Shown here in pieces: positions 35,884 to 64,000 of a stretch of 64,000 nt of DNA; the first letter of the stretch is position 1, and each line of letters starts with the position of its first letter. Origin of the DNA: Escherichia phage vB_EcoM_EC001; sequence record MN445185.1, one strand, 5' to 3'. The notes below the pieces were generated by a model that saw only the letters and a program-made list of their open reading frames with translations, was not told the DNA's origin and ran no database searches. The position numbers and the translations under genes were made by a program.

Positions 35884-36303
35884 ATGAACAATATCGCGTT
35901 TGAAAAAGGCGTTGGGTTACTTCTGAACAACACCATCGTCGCTGGCACTAATAACGCTAACTGGGAAGCGTTAGCGCAACGTCTCAAAGACAAGCCTGTG
36001 AAGATTGTGGTAACGAGCGAGCTGCCGTTAAACGGCACGATGGCGGACTGTGGTCCAATGTTTGCGGCGTTTAACATCGACTATGATTGCGGTTCCGCTT
36101 TCTTACAAAACGCCGCGTTACGTAGCCGTCTGTACAGCTGGCGTTTGCTGGGTCCGGTAAGTAAAGCCGCAGGTCAAATGGTTAACCAGGGCACACCGAT
36201 GTCGGGTGTAGAAGACCAGACTATCGCCGTTGTCGTTTCTCGCGCAACCGGCCAGCTTAACTTTGCAATCTGCTACGCGTATCAGGAGGAAGAGTATGCT
36301 TAG
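35884..36303 (+). CDS. hypothetical protein (139 aa)
   Basis: CAAGGAGA SD. Confidence 0.55.
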   Translation: MNNIAFEKGVGLLLNNTIVAGTNNANWEALAQRLKDKPVKIVVTSELPLNGTMADCGPMFAAFNIDYDCGSAFLQNAALRSRLYSWRLLGPVSKAAGQMVNQGTPMSGVEDQTIAVVVSRATGQLNFAICYAYQEEEYA

Positions 36304-37156
36304 TATTATTCAGCAGACTCAGGCGGTTGATGATTGGTACCGGCAAGCGAAGATTTACCAATACGGGACACGCGAGCAGCAGCTAGCCAAGTTCTATCGC
36401 ACATTAGGCGACGTCGCTGAAGGTGTGCAGAAGATGGACAACTTGAAAGTGGCGGCGGCCATGGGTCGCTCTCTTTGGGCGTTCGTTGGTCTGTTGCACT
36501 TCGGCAAGCACACGAACGTGGGAGATTTCGTTATTCCACTGGATGCAGCTATAAAAGACCGCACCACGGGAAACACCAAAGAGTTCCGTCTTCATAACCT
36601 TTTTGTTGTTGCCACCGAAGTGGTTGGACTCATATTGCAAGATGAGCACGAGCCCCACAGCTACGTTACCGAGCTGCATAGTTTGGCGCGACAATACCGA
36701 ATGTTGGCGCGTATCTGCGGCCTGGAATTCGGCCGTGTAATATACAACGGACATCGTGTGCTAATCAACACGAAAGGTGAAATGAACGGCATCGGGTTGT
36801 TTGTTCCCGCGTCTGATGATTTTACTGGCGATAAATTGCCTGGTTCTAGACAGATGTCTGGGCCAGCCATCTGTCTGATGTTCCAGACTGTCCTGGACAG
36901 TTGTGTCGCTACGCACCTTGCGCCCTATTGCCACCGGCCGTTTAAACGCGACGAGTTGCCGACAATCAATGCTGCACTCGCAACTACGTTAAACGAACTG
37001 CTGGACAAATATGTTCGTGACTCAGTGCGCTGGAATCGTATCCTGTTCGAACGTGTACCTGAAATAACCGCAGCCTACACAGATGGCGGTGTGAATGTGG
37101 TGATGAATGATGATCTACTTTACTTATTTGAAAGCTTAAAGAGGGATAGTATCTAA
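36296..37156 (+). CDS. hypothetical protein (286 aa)
   Basis: Start moved from track ORF 36230 to ATG 36296 (CAGGAGGA SD); stop overlaps thyA start. Confidence 0.6.
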
Positions 37157-38187
37157 TGAAGCAATACCTTGAAACGATGCAGAATATTCTGGATGAAGGG
37201 CATGTTAAAGGCGACCGTACTGGAACAGGGACGCTCTCCGTCTTTGGTCGCCAAATGCGTTTTGATTTGCGCAAAGGTTTCCCGCTAGTCACGACTAAAA
37301 AACTCCACCTGCGTTCTATTATTCACGAACTGCTGTGGTTCCTTAGTGGCGATACCAACACCAAATATCTGGAAGATAACGGCGTTACCATTTGGCGGGA
37401 GTGGCAAGATGAAAATGGGAACCTTGGCCCCCTGTATGGGGAACAGTGGAGACGTTGGAAAGATGTGAAACTGGTGCCTAAGAAAAATGCAGCTTTACTC
37501 GAGAAACTGCAAGATGCAGGATACGTGGATTATGGCGACGCGGACGACGGTTCACAAATGTTCGATGCGCGTGTACTTCTGAAAGAGCACGACCAAATCT
37601 CTAAGGTGATTGACCAACTGCGTAACGATCCTGACAGTCGCCGTATTATTGTCAGCGCATGGAATGTGGGTGAGTTGGATCAAATGGCGTTAGCTCCGTG
37701 TCATGCGTTCTTTCAGTTCTACACTCGTGAGCTGTCTATCGACGAGCGGGTGAATTGGGCAGAAGATAACGATAACGAACTCTGGTCTGATTATGTCCAC
37801 AGCACGTACGTACCCGCACCTAAGCGATTAGAGTGGTTGGATAAAGCCAACGTGCCAACCCGTATGTTGTCTTGTCAGCTGTATGCACGTTCCCAAGACT
37901 TCTTCCTGGGAACACCGTTCAACATCGCGTCTTACGCATTACTCGTGCACATGGTAGCTCAACAAGTTAACATGGTGCCAGGCGATTTCGTTTGGAGCGG
38001 CGGTGACGTGCATCTGTACTCCAACCATCTGGAGCAGGCCAAGCTGCAGCTGACGCGTGAACCTTTACCTTTGCCGAAACTGGTCATCAAACGTAAACCG
38101 GAATCTATCTTCGGTTATAAGTTCGATGATTTTGAGATCCAGGATTACGTATCACACGACCCAATTAAAGCGCCTGTCGCTATCTAA
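37156..38187 (+). CDS. thyA: thymidylate synthase (343 aa) with two insertions relative to E. coli ThyA
   Basis: Near-identical to E. coli ThyA in conserved blocks ([39 protein letters not shown] with catalytic Cys, [19 protein letters not shown]-terminal …IKAPVAI); two ~35-40 aa insertions. Confidence 0.95.
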
Positions 38188-38199
38188 ATAGGAGCGTTT

Positions 38200-38736
38200 A
38201 TGGTTGACAACGTCGTTCCATTCAAACCTAAAGTGGTGGTTGCTACGGACGAACCGCCGTTTATTCCTGTCAATGGACAGAAGATCATCGAGTTTCCAGA
38301 CGAGCATCGTGGGCAATTGCACGTTCCACAACCGGACGGGACGATGAAAGCTATCGGTTTCCCGATAGCTGAACAAGAATGGTGGACGCTTCTGGCCATC
38401 CAGATGATGTCGCGTGGTCTGGGTGTGTCTACGGAACCTGTCGTTCGCATTAATACCGACCCGTATATCCACGAACAAGGCAGTTGGATGGAACGACGTC
38501 GGACAATGGAGATGCAGATTAGCAAAGAAACGCTTTTGCAAATCGCCGAGTCCACGCCCTTTATCCTGACCTCATCTTTTAACGGGGATATGGATGAAGA
38601 CCTCTACATGCACCTTTCAGGCTTAGCAGCTGAACACCGCATTGCAGAAGAAGAGCCTATCTATACCGAAGCGATGATTATCCATCCGACTGGCTTAGAA
38701 GGTGATACCTTTAAACTGATTTGGGTGGAGCTATGA
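38200..38736 (+). CDS. hypothetical protein (178 aa)
   Basis: AGGAG SD. Confidence 0.6.
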   Translation: MVDNVVPFKPKVVVATDEPPFIPVNGQKIIEFPDEHRGQLHVPQPDGTMKAIGFPIAEQEWWTLLAIQMMSRGLGVSTEPVVRINTDPYIHEQGSWMERRRTMEMQISKETLLQIAESTPFILTSSFNGDMDEDLYMHLSGLAAEHRIAEEEPIYTEAMIIHPTGLEGDTFKLIWVEL

Positions 38737-38984
38737 CTGACCGACTCAGTAAAACAATTCGACTACCACAACAGCGTAATGTTCGCAAAGGCGATGTTTT
38801 CACGGCGGAAGAATGGGTTGCATTAAAGGCCCTGTTCCCGGACGAAACCGATTCACATGTCGTCCAAATGGCATTGAAAGAGTTTGCAAAGAACGCTCCT
38901 GAAATGCTGCTGCGTAAGAAAGAAGAAGAACTGAATATGCTCCGTAACAGCGTAGACGTTCTCTTTAAAACAATGGAGAAATAA
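38733..38984 (+). CDS. hypothetical protein (83 aa)
   Basis: Start moved from track ORF 38721 (TTG) to ATG 38733 overlapping upstream stop; GGTGGAG SD. Confidence 0.5.
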   Translation: MTDRLSKTIRLPQQRNVRKGDVFTAEEWVALKALFPDETDSHVVQMALKEFAKNAPEMLLRKKEEELNMLRNSVDVLFKTMEK

Positions 38985-38985
38985 G

Positions 38986-39753
38986 ATGATGAAACTCTTT
39001 GCGTTCTCCGATGAATTCTACACAGTGGAATTCGACGACTACGAATACGGGTTATTAGGGGCCGTCGACATGGAGGACGCTAAACGGCAGCTTCCTACTA
39101 GCGAAATAGAAATCATTGAGATTGGGGAAACTAATCTTAGTGAGATTTTGATGCTGGGGCGGCGACCACGACCTGCGGAACCTGAGCAGGAAAGAGAGCA
39201 AGCGCAAGCGATTTGTCTGGTTTATGAGCCGATAGACCCTGCAGCGATAGCGAAGGTAGTCGATACGTTACGGCCACAGATTGGCGTCGCGATTGAAAAT
39301 TATCGCTGGGCTCGTTTCTCGGGCGACACGCCGATATTTTCGAATAAGCACTGGTTGTTATGTATCAACGACGACACGATAATGGTACCGTTAACAGGGG
39401 AGAAGAATTTTGAAGATAACTTCGTCCCTGGCGAAGAGTCTGTTATCTTCGAGTATAGCCATGTCATCGGAAAGCCGAGCTTCTACCAAGTTCTGATTGA
39501 TGTCTTGACTCACGTCGGTCGAACCATCGAATACCACTACTGGGCACGCCAGGCGCGTTCTAAATGGTTCTCGTTGACGTACGTCGAAGGTTGGGAACGT
39601 GTTGTTGAAAAGATTGACGGGCGCTATGAGCAGATATGGTTCCTGAACCCGGCATTCCGTGAAGAATTACCCGCATGGGTAAAAGAAGAGGCGAGCAAGC
39701 TGACGGTTGGCTTTACTAAGCAGGGCGCGCCGTATATGGTTAACTACAAATAA
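38986..39753 (+). CDS. hypothetical protein (255 aa)
   Basis: ATG 1 nt after upstream stop; GGAG SD. Confidence 0.6.
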   Translation: MMKLFAFSDEFYTVEFDDYEYGLLGAVDMEDAKRQLPTSEIEIIEIGETNLSEILMLGRRPRPAEPEQEREQAQAICLVYEPIDPAAIAKVVDTLRPQIGVAIENYRWARFSGDTPIFSNKHWLLCINDDTIMVPLTGEKNFEDNFVPGEESVIFEYSHVIGKPSFYQVLIDVLTHVGRTIEYHYWARQARSKWFSLTYVEGWERVVEKIDGRYEQIWFLNPAFREELPAWVKEEASKLTVGFTKQGAPYMVNYK

Positions 39754-39764
39754 GGTGAAAACAG

Positions 39765-40244
39765 ATGTCTATAACTCGGATCGATTATCGTGCCGTGGTA
39801 AAAGAACTGTCCAAAGGTCTTATCGAACTGGACTCCGATGAAGCCCGTAGCTGTGGCTTTTTACCGCATATTGCACTGAGTGAGTTCCGCACTATCCGCT
39901 ATGGAGCTGGTCGTCAGAAAGGCGTTACAACACACGCTGTTGATATGTCAGCAAAGTTCCACGGCAGCGTTCTGTATCTGGTTCACAACGAAGCATTACG
40001 GAGCGAAGTGGTGGAGAAATTCCATGAAAAAGCCGCTGGGAACGGTTGGTTGACCGTACACTGTAACTACTTGCCCGAGGGTTGGAAACGCGCGACGGGT
40101 GCTGGTATATCCGGCTACGAGAAATTCGGCTTGGTTATTGTCGACGAAGCGGGTTTCTTCTTCAACAAGTTCAGTTACGATAAAATCTATCGCAGTCTGG
40201 TCGACGTAGTAACGCCAGACGTTGTGATACACCTGATTAATTAA
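39765..40244 (+). CDS. hypothetical protein, possible P-loop NTPase/nucleotide kinase (159 aa)
   Basis: AAGGTG SD; Walker-B-like LVIVDEAGFFF (resembles thymidine-kinase [VI]DE[AG]QFF) and a loose P-loop GAGRQKGVTT; tentative. Confidence 0.55.
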   Translation: MSITRIDYRAVVKELSKGLIELDSDEARSCGFLPHIALSEFRTIRYGAGRQKGVTTHAVDMSAKFHGSVLYLVHNEALRSEVVEKFHEKAAGNGWLTVHCNYLPEGWKRATGAGISGYEKFGLVIVDEAGFFFNKFSYDKIYRSLVDVVTPDVVIHLIN

Positions 40245-40256
40245 GTAGAGGAAAAT

Positions 40257-40445
40257 ATGGCTGGAGAACTCGGTCGTGGGCAAGCCACAACGTTCATGTA
40301 TCGTGATGGGTTAGGTGCGGATGTAAACATGTCTCCGGATGACGAGATGGTTATCCCTGGACTTGACCCGGACGCAGGTGTGGAAGGTGGCGTCGACCCG
40401 TCGAAAGACGACGACAACTGCACCGGTGGTGCGTGCAAGATTTAA
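40257..40445 (+). CDS. small acidic protein (62 aa)
   Basis: GAGGAAAA SD; strong terminator follows. Confidence 0.5.
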   Translation: MAGELGRGQATTFMYRDGLGADVNMSPDDEMVIPGLDPDAGVEGGVDPSKDDDNCTGGACKI

Positions 40446-40455
40446 AATACGTATT

Positions 40456-40489
40456 AGGGTGTCCATATGGACACCCTACTTATTTTTTT
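40456..40489 (+). terminator. intrinsic terminator
   Basis: AGGGTGTCC-atat-GGACACCCT then ACTTATTTTTTT. Confidence 0.8.
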
Positions 40490-40507
40490 GTTTAAGGAGC
40501 TATCAAA

Positions 40508-41449
40508 ATGGGCGAACGTTTCATTATCCAGATTCCGTATAACGTTATTGTTGAACCTAACCAGTACCTGGCACAGATTAATGAGCTTCTGGCTGGATTC
40601 TGCCAACGTCAGTTTGTTAAACCGTGGTCCTTTGAGAAACTGTACACCCTGTGCGTGAACAGTGAAACCGGTCACACTTACGTCGAAGGTAAAGTCTTCA
40701 CAGGCGACCAGCGTTTGGAAATAAATGATTTCGAAATGCCGTGGACGTTGGAAGGTGTCGAGTATCGTGGTACGGTTGATCGTCCGCGTTACGTACCTTT
40801 GTACACCATCCCACAATGTATTACTAACGTTATGGGTTGGTCTAAAGCGCGTGGTATTCTGGATAACGGCGTCTGGTATAGCCAAGCCACCAAACTCTAC
40901 GAAGAAGACGGTGAAGCGGCAACCGGTATCAGTAAAAACAAACGCCGTTACATCATGGACGGTATCGGTGATGCTCTGGTCGTGCTGGTTAACTTGATGG
41001 AACTCATTAAGTTTGACTCAACCGATATCACCACATACGTCAACGACGCACGTTCAAAGAAACCACACGCCGGGAACAGTCATTACCTGTTCCACAAAAT
41101 GCGTTTCCATCTTACTTGTGCAGTTGATTATATCTGGGATCAGGCAGGCATCGACTCAGCTAAGCAACTCGAATATAAACACTTCGAGAACAGCGACGCG
41201 GTAATGATCGAATGTCACTTCGCGCAGATGGTCGAATACGCCAATGCGCTGGCTAATGCGTACGATATGACTCTGGAACAGTGCTTCTCCTTGGCGTGGG
41301 ATGAAATCAAAGACCGTAAGGGTTTCCTGAATGCGGACGGTATCTTCGTTAAAGAAGCAGACATGACTGCTGCTGAAATCGAAGTAAACGGTTCCCTTAC
41401 TGTAAAAGATGAGGCGTTTACCGATGGCGAAGAAACTGTTCACGGTTGA
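40508..41449 (+). CDS. hypothetical protein, possible MazG-like NTP pyrophosphohydrolase domain (313 aa)
   Basis: TTAAGGAG SD; segment MDGIGDALVVLVNLMELIKFD resembles the all-alpha MazG helix pattern; tentative. Confidence 0.6.
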   Translation: MGERFIIQIPYNVIVEPNQYLAQINELLAGFCQRQFVKPWSFEKLYTLCVNSETGHTYVEGKVFTGDQRLEINDFEMPWTLEGVEYRGTVDRPRYVPLYTIPQCITNVMGWSKARGILDNGVWYSQATKLYEEDGEAATGISKNKRRYIMDGIGDALVVLVNLMELIKFDSTDITTYVNDARSKKPHAGNSHYLFHKMRFHLTCAVDYIWDQAGIDSAKQLEYKHFENSDAVMIECHFAQMVEYANALANAYDMTLEQCFSLAWDEIKDRKGFLNADGIFVKEADMTAAEIEVNGSLTVKDEAFTDGEETVHG

Positions 41450-41846
41450 TTACGATGAATACGCTGATCGTTTACTGGTCAACAATATCGTCTGGGAAGA
41501 CCACGGTCTAATGCCATGGCATCTGAAATTCCTAGCGGAGCGTTCAGAACAATGCGGTGGTTTGGAGTTCGTACTTACCGACACACCAATTCCGGTACCT
41601 CACATTGCGCCGGTAGAAAATTTGTACTTCTTCGATGCTAATGTGAAGTTATTACAGCAGGTACTCTATACGCATGATTGGCGTGGCGGTTGTCAGTTCC
41701 CAGAGAACGTTTTAAAGCTCTCTGAACGCTTCGGCACCGACATTGCGTACTGTCAAACGTTCCCAAAAGACTTGGGACGAAACAGCGTGGTGCTGTGGTA
41801 TTACCCTCCGGTAGAAGATATCGTAAAAGTGATTATCGAACGCTAA
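41424..41846 (+). CDS. hypothetical protein (140 aa)
   Basis: Start moved from track ORF 41409 to ATG 41424 (GAGGCG SD); ends at a bidirectional terminator. Confidence 0.55.
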   Translation: MAKKLFTVDYDEYADRLLVNNIVWEDHGLMPWHLKFLAERSEQCGGLEFVLTDTPIPVPHIAPVENLYFFDANVKLLQQVLYTHDWRGGCQFPENVLKLSERFGTDIAYCQTFPKDLGRNSVVLWYYPPVEDIVKVIIER

Positions 41847-41860
41847 AAAATAAAAGCAAA

Positions 41861-41900
41861 CGAGTACCCCGTTAGGGGTACTCGCATTACTTATTTTTTT
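41861..41900. terminator. bidirectional intrinsic terminator between convergent genes
   Basis: CGAGTACCCC-gtta-GGGGTACTCG; T-run downstream, AAAAAATAAAAGC upstream. Confidence 0.8.
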
Positions 41901-41902
41901 TG

Positions 41903-42454
41903 TTACGCTTGAGCCATGTCGGAAATGTCATAAACCAGACCATTCAACTCAGTAACGGTAATCAGTTTACTGATATCGACACCATCGCTCGGAACTTCGG
42001 TCAAATAAACCTCAACCGTACCTGTCCACGCCAGCGACTTTCCATTGAAACGCAGATTGTGTTTCGTGGAGGAAGTCATTGATTCTGTCGCGTAAATCTC
42101 GGTTGCGTCGATTAACCAATTGTATTTGGTTCGCAGCAAGGGAACAAGATCGGCAGCAGTCGACACGCCGGTGCCATCGACAGACAACACGACGTTCTCA
42201 AACAAATGAGCTACGTCCAATCGACGATAAGTAAGACCCATCTTACCGAACGTACCCTTCTCAATGATACCAGAAACATCAAGGTTGGTGTTCAGTCTGG
42301 TGTATTGCTCTGGGTCAGGATCGGCTGCGGTGATGTGTGCCGGGTTACCGAACGACAATTTATCGATGGTCACGCCCTTACCAGTCAGTCCAGGATTCTG
42401 AGACATGATGAGATCGTAAACCAACTCTTTTGCGGTTTTTCCAAATAAACTCAT
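41903..42454 (-). CDS. hypothetical protein (183 aa), possibly virion-associated
   Basis: Last gene of a minus-strand three-gene block; GAGGTAG SD; ends at the bidirectional terminator. Confidence 0.6.
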   Translation of the reverse strand: MSLFGKTAKELVYDLIMSQNPGLTGKGVTIDKLSFGNPAHITAADPDPEQYTRLNTNLDVSGIIEKGTFGKMGLTYRRLDVAHLFENVVLSVDGTGVSTAADLVPLLRTKYNWLIDATEIYATESMTSSTKHNLRFNGKSLAWTGTVEVYLTEVPSDGVDISKLITVTELNGLVYDISDMAQA

Positions 42455-62141: not shown

Positions 62142-62194
62142 TTTTTTACATGACGTTGGTTTCATGTGTTGGGGAACAAAATAAGGACAAGAAG

Positions 62195-62743
62195 ATGTTT
62201 TATCTGGATAGCGATGGCGTTTTTGCACGCTGGCGTAAATACGTTTTATCCACACATTTTCCCGGAATGACGATTAAAGAGTTTAACGCACTACCTGAAC
62301 TCCGTCGCCGTAGTTTGGTTCGTTCGATGTATCAGAACGATCCTGACTTGTTTTACAAACTCGAACCAATTGAGGGTGTAGAGCGAATCCTGGAAACGGT
62401 AGATAGACTTTGCGACAGTTGGGCAATACTCACCTCTGGGTCAGAAGATCACTACGACCACCAATTGGTCGTGGATTCAAAACAACGGTGGTTCATGAAG
62501 CACTTTGGGGTACCAGCTGACAAAGTCATCGTCACCGAAAGTTCAGGGCAGAAGAAAGCTTACGCCTCGCGAGGTAATTTGCTTGTCGACGATTATGGTC
62601 GTAACTGTCGAGAATGGATTTTGCAAGGTGGCGCGGCGATATGGTCGCGAACTGAAGAACCGAACATTGATGGCATTTGCCTCCAGTGTGAAGCGTTCTA
62701 CAATGACCCGATTAGTCACTCGGGGACACTACTGCAAGTCTAA
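62195..62743 (+). CDS. HAD-superfamily phosphatase, possible 5'(3')-nucleotidase (182 aa)
   Basis: Start moved from track ORF 62150 to ATG 62195 (AAGGA SD); HAD motif I YLDSDGVF (DxDG) at N-terminus and C-terminal GNLLVDDYG. Confidence 0.6.
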   Translation: MFYLDSDGVFARWRKYVLSTHFPGMTIKEFNALPELRRRSLVRSMYQNDPDLFYKLEPIEGVERILETVDRLCDSWAILTSGSEDHYDHQLVVDSKQRWFMKHFGVPADKVIVTESSGQKKAYASRGNLLVDDYGRNCREWILQGGAAIWSRTEEPNIDGICLQCEAFYNDPISHSGTLLQV

Positions 62744-63766: not shown

Positions 63767-64000
63767 ATGCAGGGCACTGAACTCAACAAACTTTGGGAAA
63801 AACTGGTTCGTCAATTCCGCGACTTCTATCGTTATACCGATAGTGCGCATCGCATGGATCACATCAACTCAGTTAAATCAAATGCAATTCGTATCGCGTA
63901 TATGCTTGGGCAAACCGAACACCTGAAGCTGATACTGATTGCGGTGGCAGCTCATGATATCTTCTCTACCAAAGAAGACCGTGCGTCTCACCACATCAAA
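63767..64000 (+). CDS. HD-domain phosphohydrolase, N-terminal part (gene runs past window end)
   Basis: TTAATCGACCATTA motif + AAGGA SD upstream; HD signature His (…SAHRMDH…) and …AVAAHDIFS…; truncated by window end. Confidence 0.6.
   Translation, partial: MQGTELNKLWEKLVRQFRDFYRYTDSAHRMDHINSVKSNAIRIAYMLGQTEHLKLILIAVAAHDIFSTKEDRASHHIK

Follow-up and report, generated by a model that had tools for sequence, protein, structure and literature searches.

The all-alpha nucleoside triphosphate (NTP) pyrophosphohydrolase superfamily includes Escherichia coli MazG, Mycobacterium tuberculosis MazG, SSO3215 of S. solfataricus (1VMG) and HisE, and metal-ligand positions have been described for both MazG and dUTPases, those of, E122, E138 and D141 (PMC10014863). 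In dimeric dUTPases, deoxyribose and uracil are selected by the His-Phe couple of motif IV (Ala-Phe in phage Duts), and motif V has the form Lys...Asn...Arg (PMC5608427). For jumbo phages, comparative genomics has led to the suggestion that MazG-like triphosphatases may degrade NTPs with unmodified bases (PMC7824862). TK1-type thymidine kinases (TKs; E. coli Tdk, T4-like phage Tk; PF00265) have a canonical GxxxxGK[ST] P-loop, a Walker B and catalytic-base motif of the form hhhDE(A/G)QFF, and, at the C terminus, a lasso domain in which Cys/His pairs provide a structural zinc site and by which the thymidine site is formed. Two genes of Escherichia phage vB_EcoM_EC001 (MN445185.1) were compared with these systems: open reading frame (ORF) A, at 39765..40244 and 159 amino acids (aa) long, and ORF B, at 40508..41449 and 313 aa long, both in an analysed stretch of 64,000 nucleotides, hereafter the window, in which the gene and motif coordinates given are on the + strand. 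A preliminary description had tentatively taken ORF A for a thymidine-kinase-like P-loop protein and ORF B for a MazG-like one. The explanation we consider reasonably probable is that these are two unrelated genes, ORF B encoding a MazG-like pyrophosphohydrolase and ORF A a stand-alone ASCE-type P-loop domain.

Bases 36000-42000 of the window present 96-98% nucleotide identity to Salmonella phage JN03, Escherichia phage Lh1B, SPN3US and related Seoulvirus jumbo phages, a similarity by which the window is identified as that of an SPN3US-type, nucleus-forming jumbo phage. The SPN3US orthologue of ORF A is SPN3US_0233 (ACQ60_gp033 in RefSeq) and that of ORF B is SPN3US_0235 (ACQ60_gp031), both annotated coding sequences. 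In PHROG, ORF A matches the profile phrog_2586 (E = 5e-45) and ORF B the profile phrog_7855 (E = 8e-146). Full-length homologues of both, with 25-77% identity, are found in many jumbo phages; in all, dozens of phage genomes and numerous metagenomic contigs contain them. Given these profile matches, the annotation in SPN3US and the full-length homologues, both are genuine genes and not chance ORFs. Their coordinates, and the motif quoted for each of them in the preliminary description, were found exactly as given there, and both motifs are conserved.

ORF B belongs to a very large and common family of phage MazG-like all-alpha NTP pyrophosphohydrolases, and it is already annotated as such: its SPN3US orthologue, 98% identical, is named "mazG nucleotide pyrophosphohydrolase" in RefSeq (YP_009153529.1). 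In addition to phrog_7855, it matches the PHROG MazG families phrog_1992 (E = 1e-38) and phrog_715 (E = 3e-24), and it presents the signature of this family, W...Q..K..EE..E...DGIGD..VV...EIKDRKG...G.F.KE.D, which is shared by homologues in T7-like phages, siphoviruses, PB1-like phages and Twort-like phages; CR5_116 of Cronobacter phage CR5, a "mazG nucleotide pyrophosphohydrolase", is another example. When the all-alpha domain was used as a tblastn query, 921 phage records were matched. The MazG-like assignment, which had been offered as a weak one, is supported by the PHROG matches and the invariance of the motif residues, the Pfam match being weak, and it was already known from the RefSeq name.

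The conserved residues of ORF B fall in two acidic motifs and a C-terminal signature with basic residues. The first motif, K129-L-Y-E132-E133-D-G-E136 (EExxE, 40892..40915), contains predicted metal ligands, is canonical for MazG in its E132-E133-x-x-E136 spacing, and lies within the segment (aa 129-175) that matches positions 9-59 of Pfam MazG. The second, D151-G-I-G-D155-A-L-V158-V159 (DxxxD, 40958..40993), opens the putative MazG-like helix quoted in the preliminary description, DGIGDALVVLVNLMELIKFD, which spans aa 151-170. The C-terminal signature, S261-LAWDEIKDRKGFLNADGIFVKEAD-285 (41288..41362), includes the basic residues K268, R270 and K282 and a beta-hairpin, whose strands were modelled at aa 272-274 and 280-282. 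Residues K129, E132, E133, E136, D151, D155, W264, E266, K268, D269, R270 and K282 are invariant in 20 jumbo-phage homologues. In a more diverse alignment of seven homologues, three from jumbo phages and four from small phages (T7-like Vibrio, Streptococcus siphovirus, PB1-like Pseudomonas and Twort-like Staphylococcus), K129, E132, E133, E136, D151, D155, K268, R270 and K282 are still invariant. By analogy with the Lys and Arg residues of Campylobacter jejuni dUTPase, we infer that K268, R270 and K282 could bind phosphate.

The AlphaFold2 model of ORF B (predicted local distance difference test score, pLDDT, of 87.2) consists of an N-terminal alpha/beta domain (aa 1-97, 40508..40798 according to the modelled secondary structure), an all-helical region (aa 101-267), a beta-hairpin (aa 272-282) and a disordered tail. 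The all-helical region (40808..41308) corresponds to the all-alpha NTP pyrophosphohydrolase domain, with a helical insertion at about aa 170-245, and its helical-bundle MazG core is recognisable by fold comparison of the model. All three aligned jumbo-phage homologues have the N-terminal domain, whereas the four aligned small-phage homologues, which start at about aa 100, do not; the jumbo-phage versions thus differ from the rest of the family by an added alpha/beta domain of about 100 aa. This domain has no Pfam match and only weak cystatin-like structural matches. A further group of jumbo-phage homologues (P0044 and P0047-P0053) is 420-467 aa long and carries an extra C-terminal domain of about 170 aa.

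The best structural matches of the model are dimeric dUTPases, and the helical architecture extends beyond the four-helix MazG core as it does in those enzymes, with their rigid and mobile parts. In comparison with canonical MazG, ORF B differs by its 75-aa helical insertion, its C-terminal beta-hairpin, its Pfam score below threshold, and its second motif, which is D-G-I-G-D instead of E-x-x-D. What is added here for an already named MazG-like gene is therefore threefold: a fold nearest to dimeric dUTPases, a shifted third ligand, and the observation that the phage has no other dUTPase.

On the mechanism proposed for ORF B, its acidic and basic residues would bind Mg2+ and the triphosphate, and the enzyme would split a (d)NTP at the bond linking its alpha and beta phosphates, with (d)NMP and pyrophosphate as products. 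With less assurance, its likeliest job may be the hydrolysis of pyrimidine deoxynucleoside triphosphates (dNTPs), namely dUTP and possibly dCTP, whereby dUMP would be fed to the adjacent thymidylate synthase ThyA (with DHFR and Tmk) and uracil would be kept out of phage DNA. This dUTP-directed role is proposed because dimeric dUTPases come closest to the predicted fold and the phage lacks a trimeric dUTPase: tblastn searches of SPN3US and the window, for which E. coli Dut and a trimeric Dut of a phage were the queries, yielded only chance matches, by which an unannotated trimeric enzyme was rejected, and the SPN3US annotation lists no dUTPase, dCMP deaminase or ribonucleotide reductase. A role in dTTP supply is plausible for ORF B and unsupported for ORF A. 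What results is an idea, cheap to test, about the source of the dUMP that SPN3US-type phages provide to the thymidylate synthase they encode.

Several observations weigh against this reading of ORF B. The Pfam MazG profile (PF03819) matches it with E = 0.0015 and 19.2 bits, under the gathering cut-off of 22, and a similarly weak match (about 1e-3) was obtained for 13 of its 20 homologues. It has no NCBIfam match, as is the case with all six proteins of the region that were searched, and no PDB relative by sequence, a profile search against PDB sequences having returned zero matches; its Foldseek comparison with the PDB is not significant (best E = 0.11). Given the weakness of the one profile and the silence of the other searches, the assignment rests on PHROG profiles, conservation and structure. 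The third acid stands one position earlier than in the MazG ExxD motif (i-4 instead of i-3), a shift that, being present throughout the aligned sequences, is to be seen as a family-wide variant and not as local decay. To our knowledge, no member of the ORF B family has been biochemically characterised, and none appeared in the literature and database searches; papers found for SPN3US gp233 and gp235 concerned other phages' gp numbers only, and literature searches on MazG and jumbo phages yielded nothing specific. As for the dUTP substrate, the Pfam dUTPase_2 profile (PF08761) has no match at E below 0.1 in any of the 20 homologues. Unlike the dimeric dUTPases and d(C/U)TPases (C. jejuni 1W2Y, Staphylococcus aureus phage Dut 5MYD, Leishmania major 2YAY), ORF B has an invariant V158-V159 at the positions of the His-Phe couple and no K..N..R motif V, its C-terminal EIKDRKG containing no Asn. 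With the couple, the motif and the dUTPase_2 match all missing, it is fold rank and genomic context that carry the dUTP assignment.

A tentative rival is that ORF B is not directed at dUTP or dCTP, and is either a general house-cleaning NTP pyrophosphatase, which is an almost equally good reading, or an enzyme degrading a host signalling or alarmone nucleotide. By sequence, ORF B falls in the broad phage MazG-like family and not in the dimeric dUTPase family; it lacks the couple that selects uracil and deoxyribose; and the suggested degradation of NTPs with unmodified bases by jumbo-phage MazG-like proteins (PMC7824862) would agree with such a role. The structural preference for dimeric dUTPases, the persistence of the gene near thyA in SPN3US-like phages and CR5, and the lack of any other dUTPase in the phage all speak for the dUMP-supply role instead, although none of the three is decisive.

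ORF A is the only part of the locus that was not already annotated. The protein alone has no match in Pfam, NCBIfam or the PDB sequences, and phrog_2586 has no annotated function; the best results of phmmer and profile searches against PDB sequences were ribonuclease A and UvrB, at E > 0.01. An exhaustive profile search yielded 54 relatives, nearly all of which are stand-alone proteins of about 150-190 aa, and hence ORF A is not a truncated gene. Phage records matching ORF A itself number 81. In the SPFM phage records LR535901, LR535903-04, LR535906, LR535908 and LR535911-12, the match to ORF A is broken by frameshifts into 5-7 pieces and the proteins annotated there are aberrant, which is probably a matter of sequencing or assembly error rather than biology.

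In an alignment of 46 sequences of the ORF A family, only T43, R50 and G53 are invariant. The Walker A loop of ORF A, G47-A-G-R-Q-K-G-V-T55 (39903..39929), is degenerate, with Val at the canonical Lys position 54, as had been described of an atypical P-loop. This position is Lys in 22/46 relatives, which present a GxGRQxGKT loop (canonical RQxGK[ST]) between strand 1 and helix 1, and Val, Ala, Leu, Ile, Ser, His or Met in the remaining 24/46; in the whole SPN3US/Erwinia clade, Val is invariant in place of the Lys. The Walker B strand and the residues that follow it, L123-VIVDEAGFFF-133 (40131..40163; the quoted VIVDEAGFFF being aa 124-133), include D127-E128 and align with the "VDEAQF" motif of thymidine kinases. 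The Walker B Asp is found in 40/46 relatives; as second acid, 22 of the relatives have Glu and 18 have Asp. Within the close clade of ORF A, D127, E128, R50, Q51 and T55 are all invariant.

The AlphaFold2 model of ORF A (pLDDT of 87.8) has beta-loop-helix P-loop geometry, the loop lying between the strand at 43-46 and the helix at 54-64, and shows the features of an ASCE alpha/beta fold, with an acidic Walker B at the strand end. Helicase RecA1 and terminase ATPase domains ranked first in the comparison of the predicted fold. Ten of the 46 relatives match Pfam AAA_14 (best E = 1.3e-5), and other matches are to AAA_24, GpA_ATPase, ResIII and DEAD. As judged from alignment and model, then, ORF A is a stand-alone P-loop alpha/beta domain of the ASCE type (helicase/terminase/RecA-like class). 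This is a first fold assignment, with TK1, terminase and helicase affinities, for the function-unknown phrog_2586, and it introduces no new kind of system.

The kinase-like reading of ORF A was examined with hhalign, by which the family alignment was compared with single sequences and with 6-sequence profiles of TK1 and of the jumbo-phage terminase large subunit (TerL), reversed profiles serving as controls. Two single phage TK sequences scored 52-60% (E of about 1e-4, 76 columns), and the TK1 profile scored 90% (E = 1.5e-6) over 78 columns that run from the P-loop to Walker B. The TerL profile scored 72% (E = 3.3e-5) over 40 columns. The reversed TK and TerL profiles remained under 1% (0.5% for the reversed TK control), and the TK and TerL profiles scored 0.1% against each other. 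A helicase, DnaB, Tmk, the clamp loader, gp46 (Rad50-like) and SMC were all under 1%, and kinship with these six was rejected. Given the high scores and the low reversed controls, the resemblance to the nucleotide-binding half of TK1 appears real at the family level.

It would nevertheless be improbable that ORF A acts as a divergent kinase of thymidine or nucleotides and remodels the dNTP pool jointly with ORF B, ThyA, the HAD nucleotidase and the HD protein. The alignment with the TK1 alpha/beta domain speaks for it, and the lysine-less subset of the family still scores 54% against the TK profile. The P-loop-to-"VDEAQF" alignment and motif spacing are alike in TK1 and the ORF A family, the ORF A segment L-V-I-V-D127-E128-A-G-F-F-F follows the TK1 Walker B and catalytic-base pattern, and its VDEAGFF resembles the TK VDEAQF. 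Moreover, thyA precedes ORF A by 1.6 kb, and in CR5 and one metagenomic jumbo-phage contig the homologue is no more than about 5 kb away from thyA. However, ORF A alone scores 9% against the TK profile, over 17 columns covering only Walker B, and the Pfam TK profile (PF00265) has no match in ORF A and a single one among the 46 relatives, with E = 0.052. ORF A has GAGRQKGVT where TK1 has its canonical P-loop, stops at aa 159, directly after the last core strand, and contains only two Cys (C30 and C100); it has no zinc ribbon, in agreement with the preliminary description, and no lasso domain. A lasso-like partner was found neither in neighbouring ORFs nor elsewhere in the SPN3US genome. Provision of the lasso or zinc domain in trans by a neighbouring small ORF was rejected, the TK profile scoring under 1% against all neighbours, and so was an unannotated real TK in the phage, for which tblastn gave only chance matches. 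In the T4-like Aeromonas phage 65 (L004 4887-5441, hhalign 98%) and Enterobacter phage Q7622 (L018 4372-4938), a member of the ORF A family coexists with a complete tk about 3.5 kb downstream. Since it has no lasso or zinc domain, its clade has lost the Walker A lysine, and a genuine tk coexists in the T4-like carriers, a role as nucleoside or nucleotide kinase is unlikely for ORF A on the sequence data. Of the kinase-like assignment, the kinship with the TK1 domain therefore stands at the level of the family profile and the kinase function does not, and ORF A should not be annotated as a thymidine kinase.

The alpha/beta domain of TK1 in turn resembles those of RecA and helicases. Hence, the TK evidence and the terminase/helicase evidence on ORF A are compatible rather than contradictory. 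The invariant R-Q-x-G of the family is a terminase signature, SPN3US TerL having LRQHGKT and the family consensus being RQtGKT, which could suggest that ORF A is a fragment-like paralogue of a terminase or helicase ATPase domain, serving as partner or regulator of the motor or replisome, or as a decoy for host terminase sensors. We consider this rather unlikely. The alignment with TerL extends over no more than 40 columns, and the score against the TerL profile is 1.3% when the close clade is compared by itself. In contrast with the terminase large-subunit ATPase and SF2 helicase RecA1 domains (T4 gp17 2O0H, UvsW, DEAD-box RecA1), ORF A has no second RecA-like or nuclease domain in its 159 aa, and half of its family has lost the Walker lysine; the phage has its own 703-aa TerL besides. 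No partner gene was found, nothing observed points directly to a decoy role, and a replication-module context exists in only one lineage, that of the T4-like Stenotrophomonas phage Marzo, whose family member (L015 5022-5486, hhalign 98.5%) lies between the gp45 sliding clamp and the gp44 clamp loader. This context is a single hint at an association of the family with DNA replication; the annotated contexts of relatives in Klebsiella, Pseudomonas and Aeromonas phages were uninformative, as were the metagenomic contigs of three distant members, owing to their shortness.

For the stand-alone ASCE-type domain that we prefer, ORF A might bind a nucleotide with poor, impaired or altered hydrolysis, and its part in the DNA metabolism of the phage might be that of an accessory or regulatory module and not that of a kinase. 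A point against this proposal is that Lys or Arg at position 52 is enriched where K54 is lost (10/24 versus 1/22, by our own count from the motif listing, with 8 of those 10 from one clade), and a displaced lysine at 52 could conceivably compensate for the lost K54, so that catalysis may persist in an unusual form, though the indication is weak. We give only a slim chance to the more far-reaching proposal that phrog_2586 represents a class, not recognised before, of stand-alone "half-enzyme" P-loop proteins of large myoviruses (jumbo and T4-like), acting as a nucleotide-sensing switch or pseudo-ATPase. Such a domain would stand between TK1 and terminase ATPases, having lost the lysine in about half of its members and kept the invariant Thr...Arg-Gln-x-Gly core. 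If this were true, phrog_2586 might regulate replication or packaging, or mimic a terminase ATPase in order to blunt host sensors, rather than take part in nucleotide metabolism.

Decay has to be considered for both genes, given a remote paralogue of ORF B just upstream of thyA (36296..37156, 286 aa), with BLASTP E = 5e-5 against ORF B and matches to phrog_10269 (1e-77) and phrog_7855 (8e-6). Its acidic motif residues are replaced (E132R, E133T, D151A and D155R), and due to these replacements it is probably a pseudo-enzyme. It presents 37% identity to its SPN3US counterpart, against 94-100% for flanking genes and 85% for thyA, and the site looks like a local mosaic or hypervariable spot. That ORF A and ORF B are likewise decayed, non-catalytic remnants with structural or regulatory roles would fit this clearly decayed neighbour of thyA, the shifted third acidic ligand of ORF B, and the missing Walker A Lys of ORF A and of 24/46 relatives. 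Yet, even between extremely divergent phages, the residues to which catalysis by ORF B is ascribed do not vary, which argues for kept catalysis, and D127-E128, R50, Q51 and T55 of ORF A are invariant within its clade; we regard decay of both as very doubtful.

The other nucleotide-metabolism genes cited in the preliminary description are all real. Thymidylate synthase ThyA (37156..38187, 343 aa) matches Pfam Thymidylat_synt with E = 1.3e-111 and has the same annotation in related phages. Given that the match extends across the whole protein and the Pfam model has 266 positions, ThyA contains about 75 aa of insertions; its catalytic Cys and dUMP-specifying Asn are apparently present, as read by eye. 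The NT5C-type (HAD) 5'-deoxynucleotidase (62150..62743) scores 33.9 bits against a Pfam gathering score of 24.8, and the HD-domain gene (63767..64000) is cut by the window end, its first 78 codons being 100% identical to SPN3US. SPN3US itself encodes ThyA, DHFR, thymidylate kinase (Tmk) and an HD protein. Remodelling of the dNTP pool, as had been suggested, is reasonable for the set formed by ThyA, DHFR, Tmk, the MazG-like protein, NT5C and the HD protein, but nothing ties ORF A to that pool. Neither the ORF A nor the ORF B result changes the understanding of phage nucleotide metabolism, and their practical value is small.

ORF A and ORF B belong to a co-directional block consisting, in order, of the 286-aa gene, thyA, three small genes, ORF A, a 62-aa gene, ORF B and a 145-aa gene. 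Their adjacency is kept in SPN3US-like phages and in CR5, where they are 13 bp apart with thyA 3 kb upstream, and this conservation out to CR5 could hint at a shared pathway, contrary to our treatment of the two as unrelated. The adjacency is lost in more distant jumbo phages and, in the window, a terminator-like hairpin separates the genes; on these two grounds a functional link was rejected. The hairpin is strong (10 bp stem with 6 GC pairs), is followed by a T-run and then by an AAGGAG ribosome-binding site for ORF B (together 40455..40490, from a consensus scan and pattern match), and, located as it is between the 62-aa ORF and ORF B, suggests for ORF B a transcript that may be distinct from that of ORF A. 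The 62-aa ORF (40257..40445) is very acidic, matches phrog_38753 (E = 3.8e-46), is an annotated coding sequence in SPN3US, and presents no similarity to the TK lasso domain in hhalign. It ends in ...DDDNCTGGACKI, and its C-terminal 30 aa are common to phrog_38753, phrog_14561 and phrog_24014. The block ends at a bidirectional terminator-like hairpin (41860-41885) between convergent gene blocks, the structural genes being on the other strand.

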